Shown here piece after piece: positions 196 to 11,824 of a stretch of 12,552 nucleotides of DNA. Both the position numbers and the translations under genes were made by a program. This DNA is from Candidatus Wukongarchaeum yapensis (lineage in GTDB: Archaea; Asgardarchaeota; Wukongarchaeia; Wukongarchaeales; Wukongarchaeaceae), in contig JAEOSI010000041.1 in NCBI GenBank assembly GCA_016840425.1, positions 1-12,552 of the forward strand, written 5' to 3'. The notes beneath the pieces were generated by a model. The model did no database searches. It saw only the letters and a program-made list of their open reading frames with translations, and was not told the DNA's origin. Numbering within the stretch: the first letter of the stretch is position 1; every line of letters begins with the position of its first letter.

Positions 196-963
196 ATGGC
201 ATTAAAAGAGGTATTAGATGTACTAGCGCGTCTTGGACTATCAGAGTATGAATCAAAAGCTTATGTTGCTCTTTTAAGAAAAGATGGAGCAACAGCAAGC
301 GAGATAGCTAATGAATCAAAAGTGCCAAGAACACGGATATATGACGTGTTAAACTCGTTAATTGAGAAGGAGTTTATAGATCCTGAGAAAAGTAGGCCAA
401 TTAAGTTTTATGCTAGGCCTGTTGAGGAGACTATTTTACGCTTAAAAAAGCAGTTGGATAGCGAAATCGATGTGGCAATAGATGAAGTGCGGAAACTTCA
501 GAAAGATGTTGAACAAGAGCGTATGATAATGTTTATGATCAGAAATGAAGAAAGCCTTAACAATTATATAAAACGTTATATAGAGGAGGCAGAGCAGACA
601 ATTAATATATCCCTTGATTCCATTGATGATCTTCTCAACCTCTGTAATTTACTTCTAAAAGTAGTGAAACCGCCAAAATCTGTAAAAGTATGCATTGACA
701 TTTACACTGACATAAATCAGTTAAAGAATGAGGATGAAAAATTAAATAAACTTAAACCTTTGCTTAACCGCTTTGATGTAAAATTACTTCCATTACCTTA
801 TATGTTTAGTACTATCCTCATTGATTATAAAAAGATCATAGTGTATCTTCAGGAGAACAAGCAGGGATTTTTAATGAGTATAGGTAGTTCTATGAGGGAA
901 ATGCTTGAGCCTGCTGTATCAGATTATAGGGCGAGATTACCAAGTTTACGTGATTATCTATGA
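196..963 (+). CDS. TrmB-family transcriptional regulator (N-terminal winged HTH, C-terminal effector-binding domain)
   Basis: The TrmB signature LGLSEYESKAYVALL...ATASEIANESKVPRTRIYDVLNSLIEKEFI is followed by a coiled helix and an alpha/beta C-terminal domain (YIEEAEQTINISL, TILIDYKKIIV). Confidence 0.92.
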   Translation: MALKEVLDVLARLGLSEYESKAYVALLRKDGATASEIANESKVPRTRIYDVLNSLIEKEFIDPEKSRPIKFYARPVEETILRLKKQLDSEIDVAIDEVRKLQKDVEQERMIMFMIRNEESLNNYIKRYIEEAEQTINISLDSIDDLLNLCNLLLKVVKPPKSVKVCIDIYTDINQLKNEDEKLNKLKPLLNRFDVKLLPLPYMFSTILIDYKKIIVYLQENKQGFLMSIGSSMREMLEPAVSDYRARLPSLRDYL

Positions 964-971
964 AAAATGAT

Positions 972-1012
972 TGTTTTTTGTTTAAACGTTTTATTTTTTC
1001 TTTGGGTTTTTT
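972..1012 (+). terminator. Oligo(T)-rich tract after TrmB, a possible archaeal intrinsic terminator
   Basis: Several T5-T6 runs lie between the TGA stop at 963 and the GAGGTGA RBS at 1013-1019. Confidence 0.35.
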
Positions 1013-1026
1013 GAGGTGAGGTACTT

Positions 1027-1455
1027 ATGGGAGTATTGCTATTCATAAGAAAAACAGGTAAAATGAGACTAATTGATGATAAAGGCATAGTTCGTGGGGA
1101 GTGGGAAGCAAGGAATAATACGGTGGAAGGGCGGGAACCTGTACCCTTAGGCGTTCATAAAATAAATACACGCCCAGGGGATGTGGTTTACTATGATGAG
1201 CAAAACTCAAAGTATGAGAGCCAAGGGCCCCTTTTCATCGCTATAGGCGATTACGAGAAGATGGATGAGGATGCTAAGCGGAGGTCAGGTATTCACGGTC
1301 ATGGGAGAAAACCAAGCATTGAGCACCTTACAAAGGGGTGTATTCGGATGTGGAATGAGGAGGTCTTGGAGATGTTTGAAAAGATTCAAGAGCTTAGAAA
1401 AGAAGAAGAGAATGTGGAAGAATTTGTAATAATATTAGAAGAGGAGGGAAAATAG
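1027..1455 (+). CDS. YkuD/L,D-transpeptidase-like (Tlde1/DUF2778-like) Cys-His enzyme without a signal peptide
   Basis: RSGIHGHG...LTKGCIRMWNEEV matches the HG-x(n)-[ST]xGC[IV]R motif (H92, C105). EPVPLGVHKI resembles the GPIPxGxYxI motif and SQGPLFI resembles the GPxFI strand. A strong RBS GAGGTGA lies at 1013-1019. Confidence 0.72.
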   Translation: MGVLLFIRKTGKMRLIDDKGIVRGEWEARNNTVEGREPVPLGVHKINTRPGDVVYYDEQNSKYESQGPLFIAIGDYEKMDEDAKRRSGIHGHGRKPSIEHLTKGCIRMWNEEVLEMFEKIQELRKEEENVEEFVIILEEEGK

Positions 1456-1519
1456 GACACTAATGAGAGGTTTTTGATTGGGAACAAAAATTCGGGGTTT
1501 GATGGGGGGGGTTCATGAG

Positions 1520-2044
1520 ATGGTAGATGAAGTAAACGATAAAGCAGGGGATATTGGAAGGGTGTTAAAGGACAGGGAGGCATGGCTTCGGGGAGAGGCG
1601 GTTGAAAAACTAAGAAAAGCTCCTGAAGAGGAGATTGAATTCTTCATAGAAAAGCTTATTGATATGCTAAGTGAGGATAGGGATCGGTGGATTAGGGAGG
1701 AGATATTTGAAGCTCTTTGGATCGCTATTGAAAGGGGTATGAAGGTTCCTTTTGAGAAGATCGTTGAGAAGCTTGAGGATCCTGATTGGAGGCTTAGAGA
1801 GATAGTCGTTAGATTATTAGAGGCTGCCTTAGAAAAGGGTATAGAGGTCCCAATTAAACTTATTTTAGAAAAACTCGATCATGACGATTGGAGGTTTAGA
1901 AAAGACGCTTTAAGAGTTCTTAAAAAAGCCGTTGAGAAGGGTAGAAATGTTCCCTTAAAAAAGGTTCAAGAAATGGTTTCAGATGAAGAGGAAGTTGTCA
2001 GGTTAGAAGCTGCGAAAATCCTTGACGAATCAGGAATAAAATAG
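1520..2044 (+). CDS. HEAT/ARM-like repeat protein with about five 34-aa repeats
   Basis: Repeats of the form LxDxDWxxRxxxxxxLxxAxEKGxxVP. The start is uncertain (TTG 1478, ATG 1502 or ATG 1520); ATG 1520 follows the G-rich tract at a normal RBS distance. Confidence 0.8.
   Translation: MVDEVNDKAGDIGRVLKDREAWLRGEAVEKLRKAPEEEIEFFIEKLIDMLSEDRDRWIREEIFEALWIAIERGMKVPFEKIVEKLEDPDWRLREIVVRLLEAALEKGIEVPIKLILEKLDHDDWRFRKDALRVLKKAVEKGRNVPLKKVQEMVSDEEEVVRLEAAKILDESGIK
1730..1954 (+). repeat. Degenerate 102-nt tandem coding repeat inside the HEAT gene
   Basis: gaaaggggtatgaaggttcct (1730), gaaaagggtatagaggtccca (1832) and gagaagggtagaaatgttccc (1934) are spaced exactly 102 nt apart. Confidence 0.7.
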
Positions 2045-2115: not shown

Positions 2116-3528
2116 TTGAAGGTGGAAAAAGTGAGGTATGAGGTTGAATGGACTGAAAAAGAAACAGAAAAGAGAGAGGAAAAAAGGAAACATAAGGTTA
2201 TTATTATGGGGGCTGCGGGTAGGGATTTTCACAATTTTAACGTCTATTTTAGGGATAATGATAAGGTTGAAGTTGTGGCTTTCACAGCGACTCAGATTCC
2301 TGGTATCTCCAAGAGGGTTTATCCTACAGAGCTTGCTGGGCTTAACTATCCTGCTGGTATCTCGATTTATCCTGAGGAAGAGTTGCCCAACTTGATCCGT
2401 GGGTTTGATGTGGATGAAGTGGTTTTTGCTTATTCTGATGTTTCCCAAGAGTATGTGATGCATAAGGCTTCGATAGTTTTAGCAACTGGAGCGGATTTCC
2501 GCCTTATGGGACCGAAAAGCACTATGCTTAAAGCGAAGGTTCCCGTGATATCTGTTTGTGCTGTCCGTACGGGGGCTGGGAAGAGTCCTACTTCTAGGGC
2601 TATTTCAAGAATCCTTTCAGAAAAAGGTTTGTGCGTTGTGATTGTGAGGCATCCTATGCCTTATGGAGATTTGAGCAGACAGGCTTGTCAGAGATTCTCC
2701 TCTTATGAAGACTTGCATAAACAGGAGGCGACAATTGAGGAGAGGGAGGAGTATGAACCGTATATTGAGATGGGATTTACGGTTTATGCGGGCGTAGATT
2801 ATAAACAGATTCTTTTAGAGGCTGAAAAGGAGGGAGATGTGATTTTGTGGGATGGAGGTAATAATGATTTTCCTTTTTATAAACCAGATCTTCATATTGT
2901 GGTTGTTGATCCTTTAAGGCCAGGACATGAGCTGAGGTATCATCCAGGAGAGACTAATGTTAGGATGGCTGATGTGATAATAATTAATAAAGTGGACTCA
3001 GCGGATGAATCTGCAATAAAAACTGTTGAGAGGAATGTCAAATCCCTCAATCCTGATGCCTTGATTGTAAAAACGATTTCGAAGATAGAGATTGAGGGGG
3101 ATGGCAGTATTATAAAGGGTAAGAAGGCTTTGGTTGTGGAGGATGGTCCTACTCTCACTCATGGTGGTATGCCTTATGGAGCGGGAACTCTTGTTGCGAA
3201 ATGTTATGAAGCAGGAGAACTCATTGATCCTCGAGAGTTTGCTGTAGGATCAATTAAGGAAGTTTATAATGTTTATAAACACTTGGGCCCTGTTCTTCCA
3301 GCGATGGGTTATAGTCTAGAACAAATCGAAGAACTTAACGAAACTATAAAAGCTTCAGGGGCAGATGTAGTAGTAGTGGGAACCCCTATAGACTTACGAA
3401 AAGTAGCCGATATAAAAAAGCCTACAGTTAGGGCGAAATATTCCATAGAAGAGACAGGAAAACCGACTTTAGAAGAAATTATTTTCCAATTTTTAGAAGT
3501 TAAAATGAAAAAATCCGGTAAAGAATAA
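2116..3528 (+). CDS. arcE: P-loop ligase of the cyclic 2,3-diphosphoglycerate synthetase-like family (often annotated 'GTPase'); most likely arginine synthetase ArcE subtype
   Basis: N-terminal MGAAGRDFHNFN and VAFTATQIP, P-loop RTGAGKS, RHPMPYG, TIEEREEYEP, WDGGNND, NKVD and VEDGPTLTHGGM. The DGEHY motif of authentic methanogen CpgS is absent. TTG start lies 6 nt after GAGGTGA (2103-2109). Family assignment is high confidence; the subtype is recalled from literature, not computed. Confidence 0.75.
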   Translation: MKVEKVRYEVEWTEKETEKREEKRKHKVIIMGAAGRDFHNFNVYFRDNDKVEVVAFTATQIPGISKRVYPTELAGLNYPAGISIYPEEELPNLIRGFDVDEVVFAYSDVSQEYVMHKASIVLATGADFRLMGPKSTMLKAKVPVISVCAVRTGAGKSPTSRAISRILSEKGLCVVIVRHPMPYGDLSRQACQRFSSYEDLHKQEATIEEREEYEPYIEMGFTVYAGVDYKQILLEAEKEGDVILWDGGNNDFPFYKPDLHIVVVDPLRPGHELRYHPGETNVRMADVIIINKVDSADESAIKTVERNVKSLNPDALIVKTISKIEIEGDGSIIKGKKALVVEDGPTLTHGGMPYGAGTLVAKCYEAGELIDPREFAVGSIKEVYNVYKHLGPVLPAMGYSLEQIEELNETIKASGADVVVVGTPIDLRKVADIKKPTVRAKYSIEETGKPTLEEIIFQFLEVKMKKSGKE

Positions 3529-3561
3529 GATAAAAACACATCATGAAGGGTAAACAAACTC

Positions 3562-3569
3562 TTTTTTTT
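3562..3569 (+). terminator. T8 tract after the arcE-like gene, overlapping the convergent stop codon
   Basis: T8 lies 34 nt after the TAA stop, at the junction of convergent genes. Confidence 0.4.
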
Positions 3570-3822
3570 ACGTGTAGTATATTCTACTATATTCAGGGAC
3601 TTCTTCATCCTCTTTGCTTAATAGCCTCCCCTGTTCAAAGACTACTTCTATTTTTTTAGGCATATCATGTTTTTTTTCTAAGTGTAATAACCAGCATTTG
3701 TTGTAGATATCACCGTGTACTACTGCGCCATCTTTTTCGCAGATAAAGGCTATCTCGTTTTCAAAGAAAGGTTGACCGCATGCGTCACATATTTCAGGCT
3801 TTTTTAATTTTTCTTTTTTCAA
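3568..3822 (-). CDS. Small zinc-finger protein (B-box/C1/RING-like cross-brace ligand pattern)
   Basis: C12-x2-C15-x12-C28-x2-D31-x4-H36-x6-C43-x3-H47-x4-H52. TTG start with GAGG 6 nt upstream; co-oriented with the roadblock gene. Confidence 0.7.
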   Translation of the reverse strand: MKKEKLKKPEICDACGQPFFENEIAFICEKDGAVVHGDIYNKCWLLHLEKKHDMPKKIEVVFEQGRLLSKEDEEVPEYSRIYYT

Positions 3823-3933: not shown

Positions 3934-4326
3934 TTATATGTGTTCTAAGATTTCTTCGCCTAGTTTTTTCATTGATAAGAGTATGAATCCTAAGTTTGCT
4001 TTTTTTGTTGTAAGTGCTAAAAAGATTGCTTTCTCTTCTATGCTTGTTAGGATGAGGTAGCCTTGTTCTCCTGCTAGTAAAACATGTTGTAGGGTTCCTC
4101 TTTTTAGTTCATTGACTGCTCTTTCTCCCACGCTTAAGAGGGCTGCGCTCATAGCACCCATAATAACGTCAGAAGTTGTAGAGTATTTGCCTTTAAACTT
4201 TGAAACAATTGGCAATCCTTCAGGAGTGATTAAGGCAGAAGCTTGAACTCCGCGTGTTATCCTTTGCAATGTAGCAAGCATTCCAATTAAAATAGTTTTT
4301 TCTGTTCCTTCTATTTTTGAAGACAA
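3934..4326 (-). CDS. Roadblock/LC7 (MglB-like) domain protein
   Basis: GVQASALITPEGLPIVS, MGAMSAALLSVGERAVNELKRGTLQHVLLAGEQGYLIL and ANLGFILLSMKK are typical roadblock motifs. TTG start with a GGGGG RBS. Confidence 0.92.
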   Translation of the reverse strand: MSSKIEGTEKTILIGMLATLQRITRGVQASALITPEGLPIVSKFKGKYSTTSDVIMGAMSAALLSVGERAVNELKRGTLQHVLLAGEQGYLILTSIEEKAIFLALTTKKANLGFILLSMKKLGEEILEHI

Positions 4327-5499: not shown

Positions 5500-5931
5500 A
5501 TGGTTAATGCTGGATTGGTTGGGATTACTGCTATAATAACTTTTAGCATCGTTTTCATCTTATTTTATTGGAAAGAGCAGGCTGCTAAAAAGCCGGATAA
5601 ACCTACTCATTCTATGAAGATTAGTGAAGCCATCAGGAAAATTCAGCAACTTGGGCGTACTGGTGAGTTTAAGGAGGGCATGATTCTAATTTATAAGACG
5701 CTTGAAGGTATTGCTGCTCAGTTCTTGGGAATAAGAAGAAAACCAAGTCAAACGCCTCGAGATTTTGTTAATCAACTTTCTTCTTCTGGGAAAGTTAACG
5801 CTATGCAAGCGCTTTCGATAGTTTCATCCTTTGAGCGAGCGTTTTATGGGGATAAACTGGTTTCACAAGAGGAGTTTCAACAAGCAGTTTCTGCCCTAGA
5901 AGAAACGTATCAGAGCGCACTAAGAGCATAA
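5500..5931 (+). CDS. Membrane-anchored DUF4129-domain protein
   Basis: One N-terminal TM helix (LVGITAIITFSIVFILFYW), then KPSQTPRDF...FERAFYG, typical of DUF4129. RBS AAGGTGA upstream. Confidence 0.85.
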   Translation: MVNAGLVGITAIITFSIVFILFYWKEQAAKKPDKPTHSMKISEAIRKIQQLGRTGEFKEGMILIYKTLEGIAAQFLGIRRKPSQTPRDFVNQLSSSGKVNAMQALSIVSSFERAFYGDKLVSQEEFQQAVSALEETYQSALRA

Positions 5932-5975
5932 AAACAAAAACAATAAGATAATTAAGGTTTTTTTTAAAAAAAAGG

Positions 5976-7616
5976 TTGATTATTGGGGTATTGAGGCAGT
6001 TGTCTAAAACAGAAGTAGTAGAAACCGGAAAACCAGGGGTTTCACGTGGCCTATTCTTGTTGATAGCATTACTACTACTTACAGGATTTCCTTTATTTAT
6101 GTCCATCACAGGTATTTCAGGTCATGAAGAGGCAACTTTCAGCATCTATAATGATGACTGGGACGGTTGCTCTGAGTTTGGAAATTACGTCAAGGAACAG
6201 TATGGGGGTGAAGATGGAGAAAATATTCAGATTATAACATCATCGTTAACTATGTTAAACCGGGTGAATAGGACAGGCATTCTTATAATGATGGGGCCAA
6301 CTATCGGATACGGTTTCACCGAAACGATAGCGATAGTGGACTGGATAATAGGAGGAGGAAGCATTCTTTTAGTCAACGATTTTGGTTCAGCAAACGATAT
6401 CTTGGATCTTTTCACTTCTTTGATGAAGCTTGCGGCTTTACAATTTTCAGGACAGGAGGACATACCAGTTTTAGGTTTAAAGTTTAATACTAGCGGCGTC
6501 CTCCTCGATGTAGGATCTTATGATACAAACCCTGCCATGCCTGTCATCACAGAATTCAGCGATGAATTTGGTGATATCACAAGCGGAGTCGATAAAATCA
6601 TATGCAACTATCCAAGTATAATAAGCATGTACTATAAGTCAGGGGAAGACGAGGATGGAGACCCGATATATAAGTGGTATCCAGTCCCCTACGGAGCTGC
6701 TTCATCTACGACAACTGCGTGGATTGAAACAGATGTAGACGCCGTTAAAAGGGGAGATTGGGATAATATTAAGCCAGACGGGGGTGAATGGGGTCCTCCC
6801 TATTTTTCTTACAACTATTCAGGGATTAGTGTTTCGGGATATTTAGGGTTTTCAATAGCCCTTCCTTTGCCTTTAGGTGATGAAGGAAAGTTTATGTTGG
6901 TTTCTGATCCGGATATTTTCGCAAATGCGGCGTGGGAAAATGCGGAGTATGATAATCAGCGGTTTGCAAAAAACATTATCGATTGGATGATAAGTGGGTA
7001 TAGTTCTGATGATAATCCGGTAATTATTTTTGATGAGGGACATATAACCCAGAAGCCTTATTCTTCGATGCTGTATTTTGGTGCTTATTTGAGGACTATA
7101 ACACAGTATACGGCATTTTCTCTTTCTCCGGCTCTTTTTGGCGTTGATTACAGAAACCCTAGTGAGGGGAATTTATCGGCATATCTTTGGGTTAATGTTT
7201 TCTTAGCGTTGTTCTTTCCGTTGATTGTTATAATGGTGGGATCAAGATGGATACCGAAAAAACGAGCTCCAAGGCCATTACTTATGACGCGGCTAAAAAG
7301 GTATTATGCTCGGTCTTATTTTGCTGTGAAGATGCGGTATTTTCTCCAGTTTAAACAGTATGAACGTGCAACAGCTTTGATCTATCGCAGACTCAAACGT
7401 ACGCTGATCAAAAAGCTTCATTATAGGGGGCCTTTGGATCCTAAAACTTTGACAGACTTGATCTCTAAAGAGACGACTAAGTTTAGTAAGGAACAGATAA
7501 TGCAGAGATTAGTATTAGCGGAAAATGTCTCAAAAGGAGCTGTGACTTTGGATGAAGAAAAATTCCTAAAGTTATTTTTGGCTCTAAAAGAGTTGATAGG
7601 AGAGTTAGGTGGATAA
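5976..7616 (+). CDS. DUF4350 (GldG/IFT52 GIFT-like) membrane protein of MoxR clusters, with a C-terminal helical domain
   Basis: N-terminal TM/signal, SIYNDDWDGCSEF, GGSILLVNDFGSAN, LVSDPDIFAN...DNQRFAKNII, VIIFDEGH and C-terminal TM helices. The true start may be TTG 6000 (MSKTEVV). Confidence 0.82.
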   Translation: MIIGVLRQLSKTEVVETGKPGVSRGLFLLIALLLLTGFPLFMSITGISGHEEATFSIYNDDWDGCSEFGNYVKEQYGGEDGENIQIITSSLTMLNRVNRTGILIMMGPTIGYGFTETIAIVDWIIGGGSILLVNDFGSANDILDLFTSLMKLAALQFSGQEDIPVLGLKFNTSGVLLDVGSYDTNPAMPVITEFSDEFGDITSGVDKIICNYPSIISMYYKSGEDEDGDPIYKWYPVPYGAASSTTTAWIETDVDAVKRGDWDNIKPDGGEWGPPYFSYNYSGISVSGYLGFSIALPLPLGDEGKFMLVSDPDIFANAAWENAEYDNQRFAKNIIDWMISGYSSDDNPVIIFDEGHITQKPYSSMLYFGAYLRTITQYTAFSLSPALFGVDYRNPSEGNLSAYLWVNVFLALFFPLIVIMVGSRWIPKKRAPRPLLMTRLKRYYARSYFAVKMRYFLQFKQYERATALIYRRLKRTLIKKLHYRGPLDPKTLTDLISKETTKFSKEQIMQRLVLAENVSKGAVTLDEEKFLKLFLALKELIGELGG

Positions 7617-7829
7617 AAGGGGATAAAAGATAAGCTTTCCATCCTTTACTTTATTTATTATGAAGGAAATAGAAAAATAATGGTTTGGATAAGAGGGAAA
7701 TGAATAATAAAGTTTGATGAGAATAAAAATGTTAAGTAAAAAGGTTTGCATTACTCCGCTATCAGTTTGTTTGTGTTTCAGACTCATAAGCGTTATAGGG
7801 TTAACTGATATGGTTGGAGGACTAATAAA

Positions 7830-8900
7830 ATGAAAGAAGAAGAAGGAGAAGAAGAACCTATTATGGAGTTTTTTGAGATGACAGAGGAAGGAGGAGAAGC
7901 AGTAACTCCTATGGAAATAGTGATGCCTGCTCCGGCGCTGGAAGGAGAAGAGGTTCCTTCTGTCGATACAAAAGATATAGAACGTGTGTGGCAAAAAATT
8001 AAGGAAGAGATGGGAAAAGTTGTCGTTGGTAAGCTGGACATAATAGAATCGCTCTTTATAGCGTTGCTTTCTGGTGGTCATGTCCTAATGGAAGGGGTAC
8101 CAGGTATAGCGAAAACATGGACGGCTAACAATTTTTCTAACACTTTGGGTTGTGAATTCAAAAGGATACAGTTTACTCCAGACCTACTTCCAAGCGATAT
8201 ATTGGGAACAAATGTTTATGATCCAAAATCAGGGGCGTTCCACCTTAGACAAGGACCGATATTTGCTAACATTATTCTTGCTGATGAGATTAACAGGGCG
8301 CCCCCAAAAACCCAGTCAGCGATGTTAGAATGTATGCAAGAAGCTCAGGTCTCGATAGAAGGTGTTACCTATCCCCTTGATAAACCGTTCATCGTGCTTG
8401 CAACACAAAATCCGATAGAGCTTGAAGGCACATATCCTTTAGCGGAGGCGGCTCAAGACCGTTTCCTTTTAAAGGTGTTATTAGACTTTCCTAACCCCGA
8501 AGAAGAAGCACAAGTGATCAAAATAAAACATGAAAGAAAATATAGCGGTGTTAAAAAGGTGACCTCGCCTAAAACTATTGCAGAGATGCAAAAGACTGTG
8601 GAAGAGATATACATAAGCGATGAGTTGATATACTATATAAGGGACATAGTTGTGCGAACTCGGCGGGATCCTCGTTGTTTGTCAGGGTGCAGTCCTAGGG
8701 GCAGTTTAACGCTTTTAAAAGTCTCTAAAGCTCACGCAGCCATAAGAGGAAGAGATTACGTGGTTCCTGACGATATTAGGAAATACGCTAGTTGGGCGTT
8801 ACACCATAGGATGATCCTGAAACCAGAAGCTGAACTGGAAGGGGTTACGCAGGTAAGAGTTGTTGAAGAGATACTTAACGATACACCAGTCCCCGTATAA
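7830..8900 (+). CDS. moxR: MoxR-family AAA+ ATPase (MoxR proper subfamily)
   Basis: Walker A GVPGIAKT, RIQFTPDLLPSDILG, Walker B LADEINRAPPKTQSA, ATQNPIELEGTYPL..A.DRF and SPRG. RBS GGAGG at 7816-7820. Confidence 0.96.
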   Translation: MKEEEGEEEPIMEFFEMTEEGGEAVTPMEIVMPAPALEGEEVPSVDTKDIERVWQKIKEEMGKVVVGKLDIIESLFIALLSGGHVLMEGVPGIAKTWTANNFSNTLGCEFKRIQFTPDLLPSDILGTNVYDPKSGAFHLRQGPIFANIILADEINRAPPKTQSAMLECMQEAQVSIEGVTYPLDKPFIVLATQNPIELEGTYPLAEAAQDRFLLKVLLDFPNPEEEAQVIKIKHERKYSGVKKVTSPKTIAEMQKTVEEIYISDELIYYIRDIVVRTRRDPRCLSGCSPRGSLTLLKVSKAHAAIRGRDYVVPDDIRKYASWALHHRMILKPEAELEGVTQVRVVEEILNDTPVPV

Positions 8901-9128
8901 GAGCTACAGCGACAAAACCAAATTTAAAAACAATAATTAATAGTTTAATAGAAGATTTTTGGGGAACGGTAAACAGATTATTCTTAACTTGACTTGAGAT
9001 GGGAAAAAGGGTTTCTTGGTTGTCGCTTTCCTCTTTTCTCTATAAAATGTTAACCAAATGCGCTTGCTGGAAAGAAAACTTTAGAAGAATTAAGAAAGAG
9101 TAAGAGCTAGAATGGAAGTGTTAGGTTT

Positions 9129-10523
9129 ATGTTAAGTCCAAGAGGGGCTTTCACGATCTTTGGCGGCGTGGTTCTCATCGCTTTCGGATTTGCGGCTACG
9201 CAGATGCATATAGCGTTTACAACTTACCATGCTTTAGGGGGCGGTAAACAGATTAATGTACCTGAAGAGCTACCGTTTTTCCTTCTCTTGATGGGGTGCA
9301 TAATGATTTTAAGCACAGTTATAGGCATCCCAATATTTAGGTTATCAGCAGATCCACGCGCGGTAGTAGTCACACGAAAAATTGATCGTGAAAAGGTTTT
9401 TGCTGGAGATTATGTTTTTGTCGAGGTTACTATGAAAAACACGGGACTTGGAGGAATCGATCTTTTAGAGGTTTATGATGCTTATCCCCAAATTTTTGAG
9501 TTAGCCTTGGGGGAAAACTGGGTTTTAACCAAACTTGAAAGCGGTCAAGAGGTCTCTTTTGCTTATGTTGTAAGAGCTTTAAAACGGGGCAGATATAACC
9601 TTGGACCTAGTAAAGTGATCGTTAAAGATCGGTTAGGACTCTTCTTTGAGGAGGAAGTAAAGGAAGGAAATGAGACAGAACTGATTGTTTATCCACCATA
9701 CGAAGATATTGCCAAGATGACAGTTGTAGGTAAAAAGAGGCTTATGGGGCGTGCTTTTGGTATCCACAAAACAAGGGCAAAAGGCATTGGATCCGAGTTT
9801 TTTGCTATAAGAGAGTATGTTATGGGCGATGAATTTAGGAGAATTGATTGGAAAGGCTTTGCAAGAAAAGGAAAACCCATGGTTAGGGATTACGAAGATG
9901 AAAAAAGCCTTACAAGCATTATTTTTTTAGACTGTTCTGGAAGCATGGGAGGAGGACCTCCTGCCAACTCAAAACTTGAATATGCTATAAGGGCTGCTGT
10001 TTTGTTAACACACCTTGCCTTTGAAAGAAGCGACCCTGTTGGTCTTTGTATTTTTTCAGATAAGGTCCAAGCTTGGATAAAACCTGGAAGGGGACAGCGG
10101 AAATTTTACGAGATTTTAGAAGCTTTGGCCGTAGTGGAACCAGGAGGGGGGGCAAATATTGAGGGAGCAACGGAGTTTGTTTTAAGCCAAGTTCGTAAAG
10201 CTGGCTTTTTCATGGTCATTTCTGATTTAGAGCATGCTAATGTTGAAAAACTTACTAAATCGTTAAAACAAGCAGTGGCTCGTAACAATAATGTGGTAGT
10301 TTTAGCGCCTTTTGGACCTTTCTTCGAGGTGAAAGTTGGGACGTTGAGCCCTGTTGAAAAAGCGTTAGCAGAAGCTGTAGCAGAAGAATATTTCGGGGAA
10401 CGGGCAAAAGTCATTAAAGAACTTCAAAAAGCAGAAATAGACACGATTAGTGTAGGGCCTGACGATATTTTGTCGGTGGTCATTGACACTTGGATTAAGC
10501 AAAAACGCATATCAGGTGCATAA
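9129..10523 (+). CDS. DUF58-domain/vWA protein (MoxR partner) with N-terminal TM helices and an Ig-like domain
   Basis: GSEFFAIREYVMGDEFRRIDWKGFAR (DUF58), MIDAS-like LDCSGSM, VISDL, Ig-like VEVTMKNTG...RGRYNLGP...DRLGLF, and two N-terminal hydrophobic helices. Confidence 0.93.
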   Translation: MLSPRGAFTIFGGVVLIAFGFAATQMHIAFTTYHALGGGKQINVPEELPFFLLLMGCIMILSTVIGIPIFRLSADPRAVVVTRKIDREKVFAGDYVFVEVTMKNTGLGGIDLLEVYDAYPQIFELALGENWVLTKLESGQEVSFAYVVRALKRGRYNLGPSKVIVKDRLGLFFEEEVKEGNETELIVYPPYEDIAKMTVVGKKRLMGRAFGIHKTRAKGIGSEFFAIREYVMGDEFRRIDWKGFARKGKPMVRDYEDEKSLTSIIFLDCSGSMGGGPPANSKLEYAIRAAVLLTHLAFERSDPVGLCIFSDKVQAWIKPGRGQRKFYEILEALAVVEPGGGANIEGATEFVLSQVRKAGFFMVISDLEHANVEKLTKSLKQAVARNNNVVVLAPFGPFFEVKVGTLSPVEKALAEAVAEEYFGERAKVIKELQKAEIDTISVGPDDILSVVIDTWIKQKRISGA

Positions 10524-10525
10524 AA

Positions 10526-11824
10526 ATGATGATAGGTAGGGGAAAATATGCCGTTCATACTCTGCGTCTAATCAGCCTATTCTCCTTCCTTTTAATACTA
10601 AGTTATCTTTTGGTAAATATTGAGCTCGACGCCTTTGACCCTAGAGCGTTTAAGAATGTGGGTATTTTTCTTATAGCGCTTGTGGGCGAGATCTTAATAA
10701 ATTTAAGCGATGTTTTTACAGAGCTAGGGGGAGATGCAGGAGCGAATGTTTCTAAATCTGTTATTAGGACGATGATTTATTATGTATTGTTGGGAGGTAT
10801 GGATCTTTCGGATTACAATATGACTGCCGAAGAATATATCTCCGGCGAAGCTTTTCCTTCTCCTAAAATATTTGCCAGTTCTCTTGGAAGCATGGTAATG
10901 TTAATTTTGCTCCCTATTGCTTTGTTGTCTGGACTCGGGTTCTTAAGGGATTGTAATGTGCGTTTATCTGTGATCTGCTTCTTTTCCCTTAGCGCTTTGT
11001 TAGCGATAGCGGTGGCTAAGGAAAAAATTGAACTTGAATATGATACAACTTCAGAATCACTGGGAGAATTAGTTACTTCTCCCCTATTCTTTTTAGGGTT
11101 GATATTGCTTTTCTATTTGGAGATCAGTTTTCAAGCATCTTATGCTTATACTATATTGGAACCTAATCTAAAGCGTAGCGAGAGAATAAGGCAACATATT
11201 CAGCGTATTAAAGAGTTTTCAGAAACCGAAGAAATAGGACCTTTAAAAGAGGAAAAAAGAGAAGAGACCACGGAAACAGCAAAAAGGAAGTCAATAGAAA
11301 GCTGGATATTGATAAGGGAACAGATTGAGGAAAGGCGGGTGGCAAAGCCTCGAGAATCAGTTAGGGTAAATATTAAGCTTAAACACTATCTTGAGAGTTT
11401 ATTAAGAAATAATCCTGATGCTCAAAGGTTATTATCTGCAGAAACTGCTAGACCTAAATCTGGCCGTATCCTGCTTTTCATTATTCCAAATTTCGTTATT
11501 CGGTTAAGCATCGTGGTTTTTCTGTCTTGGATAGTTCTTAGACCCATAGTCTTTCTAAGAGCTTTTCATGCACCAGACCCGTTATTAGATTCGGTGGAAT
11601 CGTTACAACCTGAGACAACATTCCTCGTTCTTATACCGCTAGTTTTAGCCATCATAATATTTAGCGGATTTATAGGAACCATACAAGAAAAAGTACATAA
11701 AAACGTGTTAAAGAGAGTCAGGGAGGAAGAAAAAGAAAAAGAAGAAATCGAGAAAGGCACAACTATGGTGTTTACAGGCACCGGTACGGCGCCATCTACG
11801 ATAGAAACAGATGGAAACAGCTAA
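10526..11824 (+). CDS. Polytopic membrane protein (about 7 TM) with a large charged loop; probable member of the MoxR cluster
   Basis: The ATG lies 2 nt after the DUF58 stop, suggesting coupling. Alternating hydrophobic segments, an E/K/R-rich region at roughly aa 215-310 and a charged tail. No family recognised. Confidence 0.8.
   Translation: MMIGRGKYAVHTLRLISLFSFLLILSYLLVNIELDAFDPRAFKNVGIFLIALVGEILINLSDVFTELGGDAGANVSKSVIRTMIYYVLLGGMDLSDYNMTAEEYISGEAFPSPKIFASSLGSMVMLILLPIALLSGLGFLRDCNVRLSVICFFSLSALLAIAVAKEKIELEYDTTSESLGELVTSPLFFLGLILLFYLEISFQASYAYTILEPNLKRSERIRQHIQRIKEFSETEEIGPLKEEKREETTETAKRKSIESWILIREQIEERRVAKPRESVRVNIKLKHYLESLLRNNPDAQRLLSAETARPKSGRILLFIIPNFVIRLSIVVFLSWIVLRPIVFLRAFHAPDPLLDSVESLQPETTFLVLIPLVLAIIIFSGFIGTIQEKVHKNVLKRVREEEKEKEEIEKGTTMVFTGTGTAPSTIETDGNS

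Follow-up and report, generated by a model that had tools for sequence, protein, structure and literature searches.

The window analysed here is the first 12,552 nucleotides (nt) of contig JAEOSI010000041.1 from Candidatus Wukongarchaeum yapensis, read on the forward strand. Near its left end lie three co-oriented genes, which encode a TrmB-family regulator, a small YkuD-like protein and a HEAT-repeat protein. Do these genes work together? An earlier note on this DNA took them for a regulator-enzyme-binder module, possibly an undescribed archaeal antagonism or cross-linking system. The joint reading reached here, at a probability of roughly 0.55, is that there is no dedicated three-gene system and that the YkuD-like protein is an acquired, leaderless L,D-peptidase acting on bacterial murein peptides. 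The host is known from a metagenome-assembled genome (MAG) of 2.16 Mb, 92% complete, and belongs to the Asgard archaea, the archaeal group nearest to eukaryotes; metagenomes containing its DNA come from marine sediment, seawater, mangrove and marsh. No murein wall is known from Asgard archaea (Hodarchaeota). The computations show what the genes are, the fold and motif of the enzyme, how its family is related and distributed, which genes stand beside its members and how selection acts; what the enzyme works on, which way the transfer went, how the genes are transcribed and that their products do not interact is inferred. The layout described in the note is borne out by the open reading frame (ORF) calls and by Pfam: the gap from the TrmB to the YkuD-like gene is 63 nt, and that from the YkuD-like to the HEAT gene is 22-64 nt, depending on the start chosen. 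The features are as follows.

196-963, + strand: TrmB-family winged-helix regulator, 255 amino acids (aa); PF01978, E 5.5e-23
964-1026, + strand: intergenic region, likely promoter for the YkuD-like gene; T-runs, TATA-like core, Shine-Dalgarno-like element
1027-1455, + strand: stand-alone YkuD / L,D-peptidase-fold protein, 142 aa; PF03734, 31.5 bits
1294-1347, + strand: catalytic motif (His, Cys nucleophile, Arg) of the YkuD-like protein; alignment to Bacillus subtilis YkuD
1520-2044, + strand: HEAT_2-repeat alpha-solenoid, 174 aa, about five helix pairs; PF13646, E 2.2e-11
2116-3528, + strand: 470-aa protein; ORF with weak CobW/HypB-type matches

The last of these, a fourth co-oriented gene, begins only 71 nt past the HEAT gene, so the borders of the proposed three-gene module are arbitrary. 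The entire TrmB/YkuD-like/HEAT arrangement is also present in the sister species, which carries little weight at so short a distance. It is known from this one genus only, and the synteny around the conserved 470-aa gene is wholly different in three other families.

The YkuD-like protein and its ancestry

The 142-aa protein matches PF03734 (YkuD) with 31.5 bits against a gathering cut-off of 23.4, and when the host genome is searched in six frames the score is 31 bits. Its motif G-I-H90-G-H92-G...T102-K-G-C105-I-R107 aligns with GIHG...SKGCIRM of B. subtilis YkuD. Across 32 aligned family members H92, T102, G104 and C105 do not vary at all, and R107 hardly does; judged from the alignment, the catalytic His could be either H90 or H92. 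Nearly all positions conserved throughout the family are kept (N30, T32, P38, P40, G42, G67, D82, R85, H92, T102, G104, C105 and R107). An AlphaFold2 model, built with a 32-sequence alignment as input, reaches a predicted local distance difference test (pLDDT) score of 88.8 and a predicted template modelling (pTM) score of 0.84. The top Foldseek matches to this model in the PDB all have the L,D-transpeptidase fold, in keeping with a YkuD beta-sandwich (YkuD 1y7m, Pgp2, Bd1075, Csd6, DpaA and Tlde1a), with E 1e-5 and a template modelling (TM) score of 0.62 for B. subtilis YkuD. No leader is visible in the model, where residues 2-7 are predicted to form the first core strand (pLDDT 96). The ratio of nonsynonymous to synonymous substitution rates (dN/dS) against the sister species is 0.10, a strong purifying selection as low as that of nearby housekeeping genes; the gene is therefore in use. 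For the near-identical sister-species protein, the public NCBI record gives the name 'L,D-transpeptidase [Candidatus Hodarchaeota archaeon]'. An identity as the cell-wall recycling enzyme ElsL was rejected, with a motif match of 21 bits against a cut-off of 270, and is retained as an analogy only. The Pfam family Tlde1_dom gives 13.6 bits, under its cut-off of 30.1, and PADLOC returned nothing for the YkuD-like or the HEAT protein except a repeat match at 0.009.

Where does such a protein come from? A phmmer search against 1.84 billion representatives gave four matches only. A 995-aa TPR protein among them was discarded as a repeat artefact, with eight stretches all falling on residues 45-78, and is not a relative. 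A small profile search collected 32 proteins of 77-331 aa, made up of a clade of stand-alone proteins and many fragments in which Rhs-type domains (PF05593, PF03527, PF25023) stand beside PF03734. The stand-alone proteins have 177-263 aa and most are 32-37% identical to the YkuD-like protein, the Rhs-borne domains 21-30%. Scans of genomes and metagenomes yielded 52 homologous loci outside the host genus. In the bacterial ones, Rhs proteins (up to >1,700 aa) end with the YkuD-like domain, which comes right after the DPxGL junction, and locus L015 holds Rhs repeats and YkuD in one protein; the stand-alone proteins start exactly at the warhead start after this junction. Such domains correspond to Tox-LD-peptidase, a class of polymorphic toxins (Zhang et al. 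2012, PMC3482391) for which that paper names only bacteria as hosts and gives Imm16 and Imm57 as immunity families. Going by these sequence relations, the YkuD-like protein descends from the Tox-LD-peptidase lineage, whose domains stand at the C-termini of Rhs toxins.

In an unrooted maximum-likelihood tree the stand-alone and host-genus proteins are split from the Rhs-borne domains with a Shimodaira-Hasegawa-like approximate likelihood ratio test (SH-aLRT) support of 100, and the host-genus clade, which is skewed in composition, has a branch 2.28 substitutions per site long. Real matches within the phylum are confined to two of 400 genomes, the host and its sister species, both in one genus. 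Five more Asgard genomes gave weak profile matches (E 1e-3 to 7e-3, in ORFs of 660-690 aa), taken as generic YkuD-motif or chance similarity. In the order of a Methanophagales MAG that carries a stand-alone relative, one genome of 68 has a real match. This patchy distribution, set beside the broad bacterial radiation, fits a horizontal acquisition, probably in the direction from bacteria to the archaeon. Neither Rhs repeat genes nor phage-sheath genes were found in the host MAG.

What stands next to the relatives? In 36 of 46 bacterial loci of this kind the gene after the Rhs warhead, overlapping it or a few bases away, encodes a member of a single protein family, 165-200 aa long and beginning with a signal or lipoprotein-like stretch (loci L012-L053, for example L012:4767-5267, L015:5415-5930 and L018:2797-3333). 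No Pfam entry matches this family, which is apparently undescribed and probably confers periplasmic immunity to Tox-LD-peptidase. As the partners are periplasmic, murein fits as the target of these warheads. The family was not found in the host genome or in the sister species, and it is unrelated to the HEAT protein (hhalign probability 0.1%). The stand-alone relatives keep other company, a cassette of the YkuD-like gene with genes for a helical protein of about 95 aa, a PLDc_2 protein, an HhH-PLDc_2-DUF4332 protein and an SNase, seen at L010:5001-8464 (the Methanophagales MAG, with PurP neighbours), L011:5001-8599 (apparently bacterial) and L019:1060-2449. In L011 the helical protein is fused to the enzyme. 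The phospholipase D (PLD)-type parts of the cassette show a weak resemblance to DrmC/Mko defence nucleases.

The HEAT-repeat gene and rival readings of the enzyme

The third gene encodes a HEAT_2 protein (PF13646, 44.3 bits against a cut-off of 27.7, E 2.2e-11). Its AlphaFold2 model is all-helical with a pLDDT of 84.3, and the Foldseek matches are designed armadillo and alphaRep proteins. Candidate starts lie at 1478 (TTG), 1502 and 1520 (ATG). The ATG at 1520, which leaves a gap of 64 nt, is the most likely start and the other two are unlikely, because the TTG at 1478 reads TTA in the sister species, related strains have indels of 1, 3 and 1 nt at 1482, 1509 and 1517, and the ESM Atlas has an entry identical to the 174-aa form. 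In a six-frame search of genomes the only orthologue is that of the sister species (84% identity), other matches being generic repeat similarity in longer proteins. An index of 5.8 billion proteins gave no match at E <= 1e-5, not even the HEAT protein itself, and none to the forms starting at 1502 and 1520 or their sister counterparts when these were looked up exactly, while the two TTG-start forms were unmatchable, TTG being read as Leu; the protein seems to be absent from this index, which is thus uninformative on distribution. Between host and sister species the gene has a dN/dS of 0.49. In a strong expansion of such proteins, the host genome holds 113 HEAT_2 domain matches in about 31 ORFs, or about 1.4% of its genes, and several of these are stand-alone proteins of roughly 180 aa, which makes a chance adjacency to the YkuD-like gene credible. 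Examples of HEAT_2 ORFs in the MAG are C62:6443-6886, C198:2569-3006, C228:6936-7379 and C132:3015-3476.

Is the HEAT protein a partner of the enzyme all the same? Conservation of the neighbourhood had been set beforehand as the check that could refute the proposed module. At the 52 homologous loci outside the genus no YkuD-like homologue adjoins a HEAT or a TrmB gene, and the YkuD-HEAT pair was found in no independent lineage, only in the host, its sister species and near-identical strains. When the 65 ORFs that lie downstream of YkuD-like homologues were all searched by phmmer with the HEAT protein as query, there was no match, and none of the 32 profile matches of 77-331 aa contains a HEAT Pfam domain, longer fused forms not having been searched. 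The earlier note was right to call the small domain toxin-like, the family consisting mostly of Rhs warheads with an immunity gene downstream; its choice of the HEAT protein as the partner is not supported by the neighbourhoods outside the genus. The HEAT protein is one of about 31 HEAT_2 paralogues and most likely not part of a dedicated system.

Several points weigh against the reading of an acquired enzyme without a dedicated partner. The HEAT gene is the direct neighbour of the enzyme gene, in the same orientation, and neither occurs outside the genus. The gap between them has a T5 run in the host and a T4 run in the sister species and is without a clear terminator or TATA-like box, so that the two may plausibly form a bicistron and thereby be functionally linked; the HEAT gene is possibly co-transcribed with the YkuD-like gene. 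In most relatives the gene just downstream encodes the immunity partner, and Imm-HEAT immunity proteins exist for other toxins (PMC3482391). Finally, the long branch and skewed composition of the host-genus clade would allow an altered substrate.

All but the last of these points favour an enzyme-inhibitor or effector-immunity pair, in which the YkuD-like protein would do harm in the archaeal cytoplasm, or need to be kept inactive there, and the HEAT solenoid, co-transcribed with it, would bind it as immunity protein, inhibitor or chaperone. The faster evolution of the HEAT gene, as often observed for immunity genes, agrees with this as well. Such a pair is nevertheless unlikely. It recurs nowhere beyond one genus, different genes flank the nearest stand-alone relatives, the abundance of HEAT_2 ORFs makes a chance neighbour credible, and HEAT domains are lacking among the 32 profile matches of 77-331 aa. 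Moreover, the logic of the bacterial immunity genes is not transferable, because the cognate partners are periplasmic, pointing to a murein target, and the host, not known to have murein, would not require such protection.

The long branch leads to another reading, a neo-functionalised enzyme whose fold has been re-aimed at an endogenous archaeal substrate, for example in protein or peptide acyl transfer unrelated to murein. Along this branch the motif DIARQRGIGIHGGR of the relatives has become DEDAKRRSGIHGHGR in the YkuD-like protein; purifying selection on the gene is strong, and murein is not known from its host; a signal peptide and delivery genes were not found in it; and the proteins of the stand-alone sister clade are also cytoplasmic, beside nucleases, even in a bacterium. 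On the other side, nearly all family-wide conserved positions are kept, which suggests a similar substrate pocket, and no candidate archaeal substrate is known. This reading, too, is improbable. Highly doubtful is a further one, in which a captured Rhs warhead would serve as a leaderless anti-bacterial effector and the HEAT protein as its dedicated inhibitor or chaperone, an archaeal effector and partner directed against bacterial walls in a new toxin-partner combination.

The regulator, the intergenic region and the flanking genes

The earlier note proposed that a sugar-sensing TrmB could couple expression to sugar or wall-fragment signals. The winged-helix part is clear, as listed above, and the C-terminal domain is short, but the C-terminal sugar-binding domain (Regulator_TrmB, PF11495) scores 16 bits, under its cut-off of 22.2, and the NCBIfam equivalogs TrmB and TrmBL1 give 50-66 bits against cut-offs of 500-650. 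The claim of sugar sensing is thus not sustained. The host genome has eight TrmB-type genes above cut-off, and similar paralogues (250-290 aa, 29-35% identity) occur in 32 of 41 relatives, all without a YkuD gene.

The intergenic region 964-1026 contains T-runs, a conserved TATA-like core (GTTTAAACGTTTTATTTTT) and a Shine-Dalgarno-like element (GAGGTGAGG) ahead of the YkuD start. An aligned stretch of 101 nt (940-1040) is 95% identical to the sister species, with synonymous divergence (dS) of 0.38-0.60 in the flanking genes, and the TATA-like core is intact also in more distant strains (sequencing runs X13/X14). Because of these elements and the 95% conservation, a separate promoter for the YkuD-like gene is likely in this region, and the TrmB-type regulator is probably a transcription unit of its own. 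Scans for sigma-70 promoters and terminators stayed at the level of shuffled sequence; their models are bacterial and do not apply to an archaeon. A metatranscriptome (X20), the only RNA run available, covers just 2272-3600, the region of the 470-aa gene, and has nothing over 1-2160, which is not evidence of silence.

A three-gene module, in which TrmB would sense a sugar or wall fragment and control YkuD-HEAT as an antagonism or cross-linking system, can hardly be upheld: co-orientation, the short gaps and the conserved 940-1040 stretch, which could hold an operator, are in its favour, but the sugar-binding domain is under threshold, T-runs and a TATA-like core lie between the regulator and the enzyme gene, most relatives have TrmB paralogues without the enzyme, and homologous loci elsewhere have no TrmB neighbour. 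As a regulator-enzyme-binder system the proposal of the note does not stand, and the three genes are best dropped as a candidate for a new antagonism module in archaea.

The 470-aa protein (2116-3528) is found with 50-64% identity in 32 of 41 relatives, its matches to CobW/HypB-type proteins being weak. A Roadblock/LC7 protein (3934-4326; 7393-7785 in the sister species) is 67% identical between the two with a dN/dS of 0.50, its neighbours showing 86-95% identity. From 5500 to 11824 follow DUF4129, DUF4350, a MoxR AAA protein (AAA_3), a DUF58/vWA protein and a multi-pass membrane protein, all kept in the sister species with 90-95% identity.

A proposed role on bacterial wall peptides, and known systems

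How would the preferred reading, an acquired L,D-peptidase acting on bacterial murein peptides, work in detail? A stand-alone derivative of an Rhs warhead would have reached the host genus horizontally and, despite strong divergence, remained a functional enzyme. With His90 or His92 as its activator and together with Arg107, Cys105 would attack the L,D bond between meso-diaminopimelate (mDAP) and D-Ala at the end of a murein-type stem, and the outcome could be either hydrolysis (a carboxypeptidase) or exchange of the D-residue. This chemistry is proposed by analogy with YkuD, Csd6, Pgp2 and Tlde1, and by the same analogy an activity on murein peptides is the most likely one for the YkuD-like protein. 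Since a murein wall is not known from Asgard archaea, the substrate would come from bacteria: imported wall peptides used as food or, less likely, the walls of neighbouring bacteria.

Why does this matter? The case is that of a murein-type L,D-peptidase from an Rhs warhead lineage, under strong purifying selection in an archaeon without known murein. If bacterial wall peptides are indeed its substrate, the enzyme is relevant to the question whether and how Asgard archaea in sediments eat or combat the bacteria around them, for which direct evidence is scarce. The periplasmic immunity-like family and the YkuD-like/PLD/SNase cassette, which crosses the domains, may also be useful to catalogues of toxins and immunity proteins.

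The closest known system is that of the Tox-LD-peptidase domains (Zhang et al. 2012, PMC3482391). The host protein has the same N-N-T, P-x-P-x-G, G-I-H-G and T-x-G-C-I-R positions as these toxins. Unlike them, it lacks an Rhs shell, any domain for secretion or trafficking and a cognate immunity gene with a signal peptide, and its host is an archaeon, archaea not being listed for this toxin type in the paper. With the stand-alone clade of the Methanophagales and bacterial MAGs it shares the leaderless start MxxLxFxRxxGxMxLxD and, at the clade core, 32-37% identity. The proteins of that clade, unlike the host protein, have an acidic Gly/Pro-rich tail and head a nuclease cassette, and they have no HEAT or TrmB neighbour.

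YkuD and the L,D-carboxypeptidases Csd6, Pgp2 and Bd1075 (PDB 1y7m, 4xzz, 6xj6, 7o21) share with the host protein both the His/Cys/Arg motif and the fold, the TM scores on the query being 0.61-0.66. These enzymes are extracytoplasmic and carry LysM, NTF2-like or other domains, whereas the host protein is a bare, leaderless catalytic domain with 12-18% identity to them. Another parallel is offered by Tlde1/Tae5, small stand-alone type VI secretion system (T6SS) effectors with the L,D-transpeptidase fold and an adjacent Tldi1 immunity gene (10.1101/2020.02.18.954545; PMC9638812). The structural match to Tlde1a (7uo3) has an E-value of 2.4e-4. The differences are that Tlde1_dom stays under its cut-off, that no T6SS or sheath gene was found in the host, and that Tldi1 is periplasmic and not a HEAT solenoid.

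The bacteria-killing peptidoglycan hydrolases of archaea (PMC12352652) resemble the YkuD-like protein in being encoded by genes of bacterial origin, in having bacterial murein as the only known class of substrate and, in many cases, in lacking a recognised signal peptide. They are modular and have wall-binding domains, unlike the host protein, and the text of that paper contains no mention of transpeptidase-fold enzymes or of Asgard archaea. The gene families at this locus were already known and the L,D-transpeptidase label of the enzyme was in the public record, and what the present comparison adds is the lack of a conserved partner, the stand-alone clade that spans both prokaryote domains and the link of the enzyme to Rhs warheads.

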